64,000 nucleotides of DNA, taken from an uncultured delta proteobacterium (GTDB lineage Bacteria > Myxococcota_A > Polyangia > Fen-1088). A model generated the notes under the pieces. It did not search any database and was not told the origin of the DNA. It saw only the letters and a list, made by a program, of their open reading frames with translations. Location of the stretch: NCBI GenBank assembly GCA_963737265.1, contig CAVTRY010000012.1, positions 352,001 to 416,000 of the forward strand, read 5' to 3'. The translations under genes were made by a program, and so were the position numbers. This document shows, in pieces, positions 49,830-58,136 of this stretch (positions within the stretch are counted from its first letter, which is position 1; every line of letters begins with the position of its first letter).

Positions 49830-50071
49830 GCTGCAATCATAGCGCGGTTTCTGTGTGCCGGTACTGAGAGTGGGTTTCCTGTTTCTGCGGCGGAGCGATA
49901 CCTGGCGGCGCGGGCCGGGTTTCGTGGTTGGCCAGATCGCGCTGGCGGACGGCATTGCGCCACCGGGGCTGTACTCGGCCCTCACCGGCCGCGCTTCGCG
50001 CGTCCGCCTCTCCCGCTGCGCGGGCGAGGCAATGTGGCCGCTGCGCGGCCATGTTGTGCAACAAGCAGCTT

Positions 50072-50614: not shown

Positions 50615-50748
50615 GAAAGTCTTGGATGGTGACCCCACAGATGCGATCGGTCTCGAAGGGGGTCTGGCAGATCACAGTCAGCTTGGCCGTGGGGAAGGCG
50701 CGCGCGAACCATGCGAGCTTGATGGGTGAAACTGGACCACGCTTCACC
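50615..50748 (-). pseudogene. C-terminal scrap of another DUF4143-type ATPase
   Basis: VKRGPVSPIKLAWFARAFPTAKLTVICQTPF resembles the terminal nuclease-like strand region. Confidence 0.45.
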
Positions 50749-51116
50749 GAAACGGGGGCCCCAGCCGGGGGCTCGGTGAGGTAGCAACTTCTGGCGGAGT
50801 GCCGCCGAAAACGCAGATCTGGAACAGCGAGGAACGGAGAAACAGAGACAGGATGACTTTACTGGGCAAATTATCGCCGCCTGCATCGAAGTCCACCGTC
50901 ACCTCGGTCCCGGGCGGCAGAGCGGTTGCTTCCTGTCCACTTGGCACAGGTCATTACCTATCTCAAGCTCCTACGACTGCCGGTGGGCCTGCTCGTCAAT
51001 TTCCACGTCCCCGTACTTCGCGAGGGTCTCCGCCGCCTCGTCAACCCAACCCGTGATCCCTCTGGTCCTCCGTTCCTCCCTGTTTTTCCCTCCGATCCCA
51101 CGAGGTGAAGCCCCAG
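50749..51116 (+). pseudogene. Degenerate inverted copy of the GxxExxY element (start mutated, centre deleted, ends clipped)
   Basis: Reverse-complement match to 53462-54005 with a deletion at about 50913. Confidence 0.9.
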
Positions 51117-52499: not shown

Positions 52500-52743
52500 G
52501 TGCGCTCCCGTCGGCAGATCCGACGTTTATCATGATAATCGTCGGGTCGCCCGTCAAGGCGGCAAGGAAATTGGCACACCTGGCAGGGTCATCGTTCTGC
52601 GGCCCTGGATGGCTCGCCGAAGTGCTGGCGTCCACCCTCCCCTCACCGGCCGCGCCTCGCGCGTCCGCCTCTCCCGCTGCGCGGGCGAGGCAATGTGGCC
52701 GCTGCCGCGGCCGGGGCTGGGGATTTTGATGGCGATTGCAAGC

Positions 52744-53160: not shown

Positions 53161-53387
53161 CGATATTTCCTTCGCAGGTGACGCCCGTATTCGTCGCGGG
53201 AGACACCCTTGGCCGCTCCGCGCAACATGCGCAGGACCGGGGGATCGTCCTCCCCAGAAGTGACTGGCGCGCCGACCAGGCCGAGATAGCGCTCGACCAT
53301 CTGCGAAACCGAGGTGTCATGGTGAGCAGCGTAGCGTTTGGCCTGCGCGGCGACCTTCGCGTCCACGTTGAGGGTCAGCTTGGGCAT
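53157..53387 (-). CDS. DUF6364-like RHH antitoxin
   Basis: MPKLTLNVD...AKRYA....SVSQMVE; tgtacgtat occurs twice upstream. Confidence 0.82.
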   Translation of the reverse strand: MPKLTLNVDAKVAAQAKRYAAHHDTSVSQMVERYLGLVGAPVTSGEDDPPVLRMLRGAAKGVSRDEYGRHLRRKYR

Positions 53388-53434
53388 GTACGTATACTAG
53401 TTCAAGATTTGTACGTATGCCAGAGCACCTGGGG

Positions 53435-53935
53435 CTAGGGGTGCTTCCCTGAAATGGGGGCTGGGGCTTCACCTCGCCCCGCGCAGGTGGGATCGGAGGG
53501 AAAAACAGGGAGGAACGGAGGACCAGAGGGATCACGGGTTGGGTTGACGAGGCGGCGGAGACCCTCGCGAAGTACGGGGACGTGGAAATTGACGAGCAGG
53601 CCCACCGGCAGTCGTAGGAGCTTGAGATAGGTAATGACCTGTGCCAAGTGGACAGGAAGCAACTGCTCTACCGCCTTGACTTCGACGACCAAACGGCCTT
53701 CCACCATGAGGTCGAGGCGATAGCCGCAGTCAAGGTCAAGTCCTTTGTACTGCAGAGAAATCGCGACCTGACGTTGCGTGCGAAATCCACGCAGGCCTAG
53801 CTCGCGCGCCAGGCAGTGCTCGTAGGCCGACTCAAGCAGCCCGGGACCGAGGTGACGGTGGACTTCGATGCAGGCGGCGATAATTTGCCCAGTAAAGTCA
53901 TGCTGTCTCTGTTTCTCCGTTCCTCCCTGTTCCAT
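53435..53935 (-). CDS. GxxExxY protein (PD-(D/E)XK nuclease fold)
   Basis: LGPGLLESAYE, YRLDLMVE...VEVKAV, AQVITYLK, GLLVNF. Confidence 0.92.
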   Translation of the reverse strand: MEQGGTEKQRQHDFTGQIIAACIEVHRHLGPGLLESAYEHCLARELGLRGFRTQRQVAISLQYKGLDLDCGYRLDLMVEGRLVVEVKAVEQLLPVHLAQVITYLKLLRLPVGLLVNFHVPVLREGLRRLVNPTRDPSGPPFLPVFPSDPTCAGRGEAPAPISGKHP

Positions 53936-54017
53936 ATCTGCGTTTTCGGCGGCACTCCGCCAGAAGTTGCTACCTCACCGAGCCCCCGGCTGGGGCCCCC
54001 GTTTCAGGGAGGCACCC
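53439..54017 (-). mobile_element. 579-bp TIR-bounded element carrying only a GxxExxY gene
   Basis: 23-bp TIRs (53439-53461, 53995-54017; 2 mismatches) and 9-bp direct repeat tggggctag (53430-53438, 54018-54026). Confidence 0.88.
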
Positions 54018-54316
54018 TGGGGCTAGGGACCACCTCCGGGCATGGGCGTTAAGCGGTCAACCGCGTGTCCGGATGGCCATTCGTGATTTTGAGGACACAA
54101 ATCTTCGAATCGGGTCGCTCACCGGCCGCGCTTCGCGCGTCCGCCTCTCCCACTTCGTGGGCGAGGCAATATGGCCGCTGCGCGGCCGGGGGGAATGGCT
54201 GGTAATTGGGTGGCTGCGCAAGGCTATGGACCGGACTGGGGGGTGCGCCGATTATCCGGCCCCGCTGACTCGCCATGTCTTGCTCCCACCCCCAGCCACC
54301 AGCTATCATTACCATT

Positions 54317-57621: not shown

Positions 57622-58136
57622 GGGTGCTTCCCTGAAATGGGGGCTGGGGCTTCACCTCGCCCCGCGCAGGTGGGATCGGAGGGAAAAACAGGGAGGAACG
57701 GAGGACCAGAGGAATCACGGGTTGGGTTGACGAGGCGGCGGAGACCCTCGCGAAGTACGGGGACGTGGAAATTGACGAGCAGGCCCACCGGCAGTCGTAG
57801 GAGCTTGAGATAGGTAATGACCTGTGCCAAGTGGACAGGAAGCAACTGCTCTACCGCCTTGACTTCGACGACCAAACGGCCTTCCACCATGAGGTCGAGG
57901 CGATAGCCGCAGTCGAGGTCAATGCCTTTGTACTGCAGAGAAATCGCGACCTGACGTTGCGTGCGAAATCCACGCAGGCCTAGCTCGCGCGCCAGGCAGT
58001 GCTCGGAGGCCGACTCAAGCAGCCCGGGACCGAGGTGACGGTGGACTTCGATGCAGGCGGCGATAATTTGCCCAGTAAAGTCATCCTGTCTCTGTTTCTC
58101 CGTTCCTCGCTGTTCCATATCTGCGTTTTCGGCGGC
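57622..58136 (-). mobile_element. Second copy of the GxxExxY element (ORF start 58118; motif Tyr changed to Ser; right end lost)
   Basis: Colinear with 53439-53953; begins exactly at the GGGTGCTTCCCTGAAA TIR inside a REP-like stub. Confidence 0.9.

Follow-up and report, generated by a model that had tools for sequence, protein, structure and literature searches.

A transposase-free 579-bp element bearing a GxxExxY nuclease gene is probably an ISKra4-type mobile insertion cassette moved in trans

Introduction

How an element devoid of a transposase gene comes to bear the marks of transposition is the question raised by a 579-bp unit in the genome of an uncultured myxobacterium. The window analysed here is a stretch of 64,000 bp (G000:C12:352001-416000) from an assembly of 6.55 Mb in 25 contigs. 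A profile search of the 579 bp, which occupy window positions 53439-54017, returned no transposase gene, and the sole long frame with a family match was that of a GxxExxY nuclease. A first-pass annotation, made from the sequence alone, had offered two readings of this unit. The first, a cassette mobilised in trans by an IS256/Mutator-like transposase, is supported by the finding of an ISKra4 element (Mutator superfamily) with related ends and a 9-bp duplication. The second, an element that spreads itself with the aid of its nuclease, is required by nothing that was tested: copies with frameshifted nuclease genes have spread, and the site preference is of the ISKra4 type. The element is very probably not self-mobile and most likely borrows the transposase of a known insertion-sequence family.

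Results

Layout of the element

The features on which the analysis rests are the following, in window coordinates.

53439..54017, no strand assigned: the whole element, 579 bp, a mobile insertion cassette; the genome has 31 full-length copies, this one included
53430..53438, no strand assigned: left target duplication, 9 bp, tggggctag, containing the stop codon of the nuclease frame
54018..54026, no strand assigned: right target duplication, 9 bp, tggggctag, a direct repeat of the left one
53439..53461, plus strand: left terminal inverted repeat, 23 bp; element bases 1-54 resemble an end on metagenome contig L176 (92.7%)
53995..54017, minus strand: right terminal inverted repeat, 23 bp, 19/23 identical to each end of an element on contig C20 described below
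53435..53935, minus strand: GxxExxY gene (PF13366 / TIGR04256), PD-(D/E)XK fold, 166 aa, by profile match
53504..53528, plus strand: inner inverted arm on the downstream side of the gene, made of phased 8-9-nt words, pairing with 53907-53931 (25 nt, 92% complementary)
53907..53931, minus strand: inner inverted arm on the upstream side, overlapping codons 2-10 of the gene
57622..58136, no strand assigned: second window copy, left end perfect, right ~64 bp absent
50741..51116, no strand assigned: third window copy, in inverted orientation and decayed; it lacks element bases 247-406 and one of its ends, and its other end is degenerate

The 23-bp inverted ends and the flanking 9-bp repeat that had been read from the window are both present, the outer ends being complementary at 21 of 23 positions (91%). 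The annotation had also described a nuclease frame that borrows its stop from the target duplication, and this was borne out: the frame has no stop codon of its own, runs through the left end of the element and terminates at a TAG (the complement of 53435-53437) inside the left duplication. Equally sound were its descriptions of a second copy starting on the same terminal base at 57622, which is cut at 58136 and lacks its right end, and of a decayed third copy in inverted orientation. A simple scan of window positions 53300-54150 revealed no internal promoter or terminator. Homology to relatives begins at element base 44-48 and homology to the transposon end found on contig L176 extends to element base 54, suggestive of a composite organization in which a GxxExxY cassette is enclosed between two transposon ends.

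Copies across the genome

The count of three copies given in the annotation proved to be a large underestimate. When the 579-bp unit was searched with blastn against the whole 6.55-Mb assembly, 46 aligned pieces were found at 39 places. Full-length copies occupy 31 of these (564-580 bp, 93.6-100% identical), all with the same first and last bases, and identity among most copies is 98-99%. The other eight places hold copies that are truncated (three: window 57622-58136, C14:367410 and C11:916267), decayed (one: window 50741-51116) or interrupted (four). Gene-less deletion forms are represented by the decayed window copy and by one contig of sequencing run X3.

A perfect 9-bp duplication borders 29 of the 31 full-length copies, and the duplicated sequences are all different except in a tandem dimer. 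In the remaining two, the duplication is either 10 bp long or offset (C21:116013) or matches at 7 of 9 positions (C23:476702). The four interrupted copies, which keep both ends, comprise two with perfect duplications, one with a 7/9 match and one without a duplication. Two copies of different subtypes form the tandem dimer (C17:62354-63520), in which one 9-bp sequence is present three times, once on either side and once at the junction between them; the arrangement fits a second strike on one promoter-proximal target. A search of the whole genome for the end sequence, allowing up to 5 mismatches, returned 74 sites, of which 73 lie at ends of element copies. The agreement of copy ends and duplications is far beyond chance, and the mobility proposed in the annotation stands after a genome-wide search with the terminal repeat and a tabulation of the duplications.

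Two 2-kb "long forms" (C23:162554-164571 and C20:14118-16133) were considered as autonomous versions of the element and rejected, since in both an unrelated IS4-family element, which has ends of its own and is bordered by 11-bp duplications, has inserted into a cassette. With regard to the assembly itself, no element end sequence was found at its contig ends in a search allowing up to 5 mismatches, and other repeats of 1.4-2.5 kb present in 10-24 copies were resolved. In two soil sequencing runs from one study, contigs break exactly at both ends of the element and run on into DNA that borders other copies; sequencing depth is roughly 20 times as high within the element as in the flanking DNA, as a repeat would give.

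Empty sites and occurrence in other genomes

Empty sites were sought by comparing 15 kb around the copy at C22:99530-100108 with other species of the genus. This copy is absent at the matching site in five congeneric species, where the sites were read base by base. Its flanks lie 6 bp apart in G002 and G008, as predicted for a single target copy, and intergenic DNA is colinear across the site in G001, G010 and G005. The copy at C12:160720-161298 is likewise absent from G010 (37-bp gap) and G001 (308-bp gap), so that the empty-site comparison proposed with the first reading of the window has yielded empty matching sites in related species for two copies. For the copies at C22:87104 and C12:150784, the flanks of the relatives are on separate contigs. 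Among the sequencing-run contigs, none linked the two sides of the copy at 53439-54017 with high similarity; one contig of run X6 carries a joint from 53433 to 54159 that is only 22-nt-sided and too weak to count.

A search of 41 genomes gave no further genome with the complete unit, ends included. In the sister genome G009, ends that are 1-2 mismatches from those of the cassette occur at four contig ends and bound other interiors, indicating that the same ends accompany different contents.

Target-site preference

The motif TTGAC starts exactly at position 17 outward from the element in 7 of 62 flanks (6 left, 1 right), where about 0.04 would be expected. Of 31 insertions, 9 (29%) have a -35-like hexamer at positions 15-19 with a -10-like one after it, as against 94 of 20,000 random sites; the corresponding binomial P of about 2e-14 is exploratory, the motif having been defined after the flanks were inspected. 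The cassette thus shows a preference for insertion some 16 bp upstream of promoter -35 boxes. At position 17, the element on contig C20 has TCGACA and the metagenomic relative L060 has TTGACA.

In the account of Guerillot et al. (2014, PMC3942029), ISKra4 is a lineage of the prokaryotic Mutator superfamily (p-MULT 4 group). There, the inverted repeats are given as 18-39 bp long and the duplications as 8 or 9 bp, and at more than 20% of the sites used by ISKra4-group members a promoter is reported to lie 13-17 bp from the junction (PMC3942029). The cassette fits these end and target properties with its 23-bp repeats, its 9-bp duplications and its 29% of promoter sites as scored with a motif defined post hoc.

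The nuclease gene

The 166-aa product of the element matches PF13366 (E 2.4e-40) and TIGR04256 (E 4.3e-41), and the GxxExxY profile scores are 139.9 bits (cut-off 35) and 138 bits (cut-off 22). In the literature available to us, the function of the family (PF13366 / PDDEXK_3 / TIGR04256) is listed as unknown, and a search for work on GxxExxY proteins found nothing on mobility. Residues E35, D75, E85 and K87, among others, are invariant in 37 relatives and present in the window protein; by analogy with other enzymes of the predicted fold, these four may be catalytic. The structure predicted from the 37-sequence alignment (pLDDT 92.6) has Cas4 and Hjc as its nearest solved folds, at weak TM scores of 0.4-0.5, and a sequence search at E values up to 0.1 retrieved no relative of solved structure.

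The frame is intact (ATG start, 122 or more of the 130 domain residues kept) in 16 of the 31 full-length copies, the other 15 having frameshifts, an early stop or a lost start. One 1-bp deletion is common to at least 6 copies that lie at different sites, each with its own duplication, which argues that an intact nuclease gene in cis is not needed for spread. Of the coding variants that distinguish the copies, 22 alter the protein or introduce a stop and 14 are silent, the neutral ratio being about 2.9 to 1. We note that shared frameshifts could also reflect recurrent assembly errors or gene conversion and not inheritance, and that frameshifted copies could be served in trans by intact nuclease copies.

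Comparison with the homologues of G005 and G009 gave dN/dS values of 0.12-0.29, which show that the protein is under selection in the genus. These homologues have their own stop codons and are without the outer ends of the cassette. The closest named relative of the nuclease gene (86%) belongs to an "uncultured Myxococcales" MAG. Five other genomes yielded 1-2 GxxExxY matches each, from which it appears that the gene is not generally multi-copy.

The inner inverted arms

The flanks of GxxExxY genes across genomes, whose survey had been suggested with the annotation, do often carry inverted repeats. The survey covered 74 loci from many phyla, namely those of 80 with at least 350 bp on both sides of the gene. 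An inverted repeat scoring at least 16 joins both flanks at 43 of the 74 loci with a mismatch penalty of -2 and at 48 with a penalty of -1; in two controls run at penalty -2, the maximum was 14 against the threshold of 16. Examples of the phased words that make up the arms are CACAGAG, CGCAGAG and CACGAAG, and the units have a median length of 478 bp. The genome under study also holds a canonical GxxExxY copy with CACAGAG-type arms, adjoining a recA-like gene, as well as a single hairpin formed by the arms without a gene. A reading of the arms as an RNA stem was rejected, there being no sense-strand excess of G-U-compatible mismatches (48 sense, 56 antisense, 100 other).

Transposase-bearing elements with related ends

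Self-comparison of the genome revealed many repeat families, two of them of ISKra4 type. One is represented by a single-copy, 2,120-bp ISKra4-family insertion sequence (C20:66979-69098) whose ends, each 19/23 identical to the right end of the cassette, are inverted and bordered by a perfect 9-bp duplication, ggaaagcgg. In the whole genome, these two ends are the only sites outside cassette copies that lie within 4 mismatches of the right end. The element encodes a 466-aa ISKra4 transposase (NF033572, 256.9 bits, cut-off 205) and a second gene of 141 aa with no Pfam match. Contig C20 also bears cassette copies and is thereby identified as part of the same genome. The C20 element surfaced only when the right-end variant was used as query with up to 7 mismatches; within 5 mismatches of the left end, no larger element with the same ends was found in this genome, nor did the assembly yield an element combining identical ends with a transposase gene. 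Against the C20 element as the driver of the cassette stand its less than fully identical ends and its single copy.

The second family, here called element A, is present in 11 copies of 1,782 bp that make 9-bp duplications and have the ends GGGTGGGTTGCACGGG.... The 588-aa transposase that it encodes falls short of the NF033572 cut-off (177.9 bits; cut-off 205) and is 31-33% identical to the C20 transposase over about 200 residues. Searches of G003, G004, G005, G009 and G018 gave no match to an ISKra4 transposase, these being fragmented assemblies (280-790 contigs) in which insertion sequences often fail to assemble. Among 12 congeners compared with the C20 protein, only G010 has a match, at ~30% identity; here too the assemblies are fragmented and the result says little.

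Exact matches to the end pattern of the cassette were found on 11 metagenome contigs. On four of them the pattern occurs twice, in inverted orientation and at a spacing of 1,999-2,148 bp, and each of these four matches the C20 element at ~70% DNA identity. The two whose frames were read, L173 and L178, each encode a 463-aa ISKra4 transposase (241.7 and 244 bits, respectively). That of L173 is 73% identical to the C20 protein, and the second frame of L173 (142 aa) resembles, on visual inspection, the second gene of the C20 element (141 aa). The likeness of one L176 end to the cassette extends past the inverted repeat, over element bases 1-54 as listed above. L173 and L178, in which both flanks are present, show no 9-bp duplication, a result to be read in the knowledge that short-read contigs across repeats may be chimeric. 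Further afield, relatives of the C20 transposase in Acidobacteriota and Actinomycetota MAGs (61-66% identical) are accompanied by ends GGGTGCTTAACCGTTTTGGGG; an alignment of 12 ends, including the two of the cassette, has 10 invariant positions among the first 23, and perfect 9-bp duplications occur at three of the six loci of distant relatives with both end-like sites.

According to the first-pass annotation, an autonomous insertion sequence with identical inverted repeats would reduce the element to an ordinary passenger cassette. The check that it proposed, a search for a same-ended element with a DDE transposase, succeeded on the metagenome contigs just described. Since pattern-identical ends are borne by elements with an ISKra4 transposase, the unit is, by that reckoning, an ordinary passenger cassette.

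Discussion

Which transposase moves the element

Copy number, duplications and empty sites support real transposition of the 579-bp unit. It is very likely, in our view, a non-autonomous derivative of an ISKra4-family insertion sequence that is moved in trans; which transposase does the work, and that the nuclease travels as a passenger, we infer from the likeness of the ends, the target sites and the state of the nuclease genes. The derivative would have retained the 23-bp ends of its ISKra4 parent together with ~50 bp of one subterminal region, and the parent's transposase gene and second gene would have been replaced by the GxxExxY nuclease cassette. A transposase made elsewhere would then bind the ends, a staggered cut on insertion would duplicate 9 bp, and the preferred point of insertion would lie ~16 bp ahead of the -35 box in promoters of the sigma-70 type. 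The likeliest source of this transposase would be the C20 element or a lost relative with identical ends.

The second of these sources leads to an alternative that we consider rather unlikely, namely that the driver was an identical-ended relative now lost or unassembled, that the C20 element is only a cousin and that the 39 copies are a finished burst, immobile today. A driver other than the C20 element would accord with the metagenomic transposase elements, which fit the end pattern exactly, whereas the C20 ends differ at 4 of 23 positions; a burst that has ended would accord with the broken frames of about half of the copies and with the eight of 39 places at which copies are truncated or interrupted. 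However, the 98-99% identity of most copies points to a recent burst, and a driver missed by the assembly is hard to reconcile with contig ends free of the element's end sequence, where a collapsed repeat would be expected, and with the resolution of other 1.4-2.5-kb repeats in 10-24 copies. In miniature elements, moreover, cross-mobilisation at ~80% end identity is plausible, which counts against the need for a lost driver. Very unlikely, by comparison, is mobilisation of the cassette by element A instead of the C20 element. With 11 copies, element A is probably active, its ends start with GGGTG, it makes 9-bp duplications and 7 of 10 of its copies, judged by eye, carry a hexamer resembling a -35 box at position 17 of one flank; yet its ends match the 23 bp of the cassette only at the first five bases and a few scattered positions, and its transposase falls below the family cut-off and shares only 31-33% identity with that of C20.

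The role of the nuclease deserves separate consideration. That the GxxExxY protein is itself the recombinase, or an essential helper, of a self-mobile minimal element is suggested by its being the element's only gene, by a predicted fold that may be that of DNA-cutting enzymes, by the occurrence of the gene between inverted arms across phyla and by dN/dS values of 0.12-0.29, which are those of a working protein. We nonetheless regard this reading as extremely improbable, given that a DDE family whose members have the same ends accounts for the outer ends, for the 9-bp duplications and for the targeting of promoters, that copies with a broken nuclease have spread, that the five other genomes have 1-2 GxxExxY matches each and that the GxxExxY genes of G005 and G009 are without the outer ends of the cassette. 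Alternatively, the element might be a chimera of two selfish systems, in which the nuclease would act on its own phased arms, present in every copy, or on transposition breaks and thereby raise copy number, or homogenise the copies by break-induced copying. Although speculative and quite unlikely in our judgement, this possibility has consequences of its own: an active nuclease would help to explain why the cassette occupies 39 places and its transposase-bearing parent one, and the genome would offer a natural system in which to read out the activity of GxxExxY plus arms.

Under the preferred reading, that of a derivative moved in trans by an ISKra4-type transposase, a transposase-free nuclease element need not mean a new mechanism of transposition, every hallmark of the unit being traceable to a known DDE family. 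The element adds a high-copy, gene-carrying dependant to the little-studied ISKra4 family and indicates, in a myxobacterium, that a non-autonomous derivative shares the family's preference for sites immediately upstream of promoters. Given this promoter-proximal landing, about 39 insertions may influence how the genes beside them are expressed. Finally, a GxxExxY cassette that is carried and multiplied by another mobile element provides a handle on the function of such cassettes.

Comparison with known systems

With the ISKra4 family the element shares 23-bp repeats of the form G...C, 9-bp duplications, a -35 box ~16 bp away (29% of sites) and the end signature; without a transposase gene, it is a dependant and not an autonomous member of that family. 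A literature search at the abstract level found no link between ISKra4 and a miniature or cassette derivative. The definition of a miniature inverted-repeat element in the strict sense does not cover it, as it codes for a 166-aa frame. REP/REPIN sequences and their RAYT genes offer a parallel in that short, repeated, hairpin-like DNA is tied to one small gene, but the protein here has a PD-(D/E)XK and not an HUH fold, REPINs are without 9-bp duplications, and the outer element is of the DDE type. With GxxExxY cassettes with phased arms, of which we found no published description, the inner part of the unit shares its build, a gene between 25-nt inverted arms of 8-9-nt words; in contrast to such cassettes elsewhere, it is enclosed by transposon ends, no longer has a stop codon of its own and probably owes its high copy number to a DDE transposase.

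The known systems also include the mobile insertion cassettes, miniature inverted-repeat elements with a passenger gene, of which MIC231 of the Bacillus cereus group is one and which, as published, are usually low-copy. They have in common with the present element inverted ends derived from an insertion sequence, a duplication of family length, no transposase, one passenger gene and a presumed mobilisation in trans. The class, to which qnr-bearing cassettes of Aeromonas and Proteeae also belong, has already been described in print (PMC3913671, PMC5444012). The 579-bp element is most probably one such cassette, derived from the ISKra4 family: the class is known, and we found no paper on ISKra4 dependants or on the mobility of GxxExxY genes. 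It is set apart from other mobile insertion cassettes by its derivation from ISKra4, its presence at 39 places in one genome, its aim at promoters and a cargo that is itself a repeat-flanked nuclease unit.

Gene-less and diverged relatives of the cassette

A gene-less deletion form of the 579-bp GxxExxY nuclease cassette is found outside the assembly of the source genome, G000. In a peat metagenome from another study (run X3), a 628-nt contig joins window positions 53438-53622 to 53856 onwards, thereby skipping 233 bp of the nuclease gene; it has the left end of the element, with three letters different and an 11-nt gap. Internally deleted remnants of the same cassette are also held by repeats of approximately 300 bp, present in at least 11 copies (L022-L032) in the sister genomes G003 and G004. 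The ends of these repeats (GGGCACCCCTTTCAAGG...) differ from those of the cassette, and the repeats often lie inside or adjoin GGAACCCT...AGGGTTCC hairpins.

The inner arms, the 25-nt phased inverted arms that bracket the GxxExxY gene, occur in the source genome as a hairpin without the gene (C14:19270-19365), enclosed by an additional short inverted repeat (AATGCCGTTCG...); similar units were found in genomes G010 and G011 (L018, L019). A diverged second GxxExxY gene, 59% identical (C22:198320-198780), is bracketed by phased inverted arms of the CACAGAG type, without transposon ends, and is immediately followed downstream by a recA-like gene (read by eye). In the cassette itself, element bases 85 and 474, at 53523 and 53912 of the window, are partners in the inner arms. 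Both are unlike the majority in a four-copy subfamily, where a C/T mismatch has become a T-A pair; this one position pair only may hint that inner-arm pairing matters.

Other repeats and insertion sequences

One cassette copy hosts a 187-bp element without a gene (C13:548132-548318) whose ends are similar to those of a 1,294-bp element of the genome (CAGGG... ends, 10-bp duplications), which we take to be ISAs1-like. Miniature derivatives seem common in G000. Two further copies each contain a 1,428-bp IS4-family element, just internal to one of the cassette's inverted ends, at bases 25-35 and 546-556 of the cassette:

L001 536-1963 (C23:162589-164016), IS4-family insertion 1
L002 about 1055-2482 (C20), IS4-family insertion 2

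This element, with ends CATAGGCATTAACCC, encodes a 438-aa DDE_Tnp_1 transposase and is present in 10 copies in G000, with 11-bp duplications.

On both sides of the window's element lies a GC-rich repeat of 51-75 nt, its copies 87-92% alike and adjoining toxin-antitoxin-like gene pairs:

50000-50050, GC-rich repeat copy
52642-52716, GC-rich repeat copy
54118-54192, GC-rich repeat copy

Window positions 54097-54153 represent a widespread repeat, since their contig depth is very high in peat and rhizosphere runs from other studies.

Element 'A', a 1,782-bp ISKra4-like element with a 588-aa transposase, occupies 11 places in G000 (e.g. C7:274440-276221, L005). Inspection by eye showed that, in seven of 10 copies, position 17 of one flank carries a -35-like hexamer, and 'A' likewise generates 9-bp duplications.
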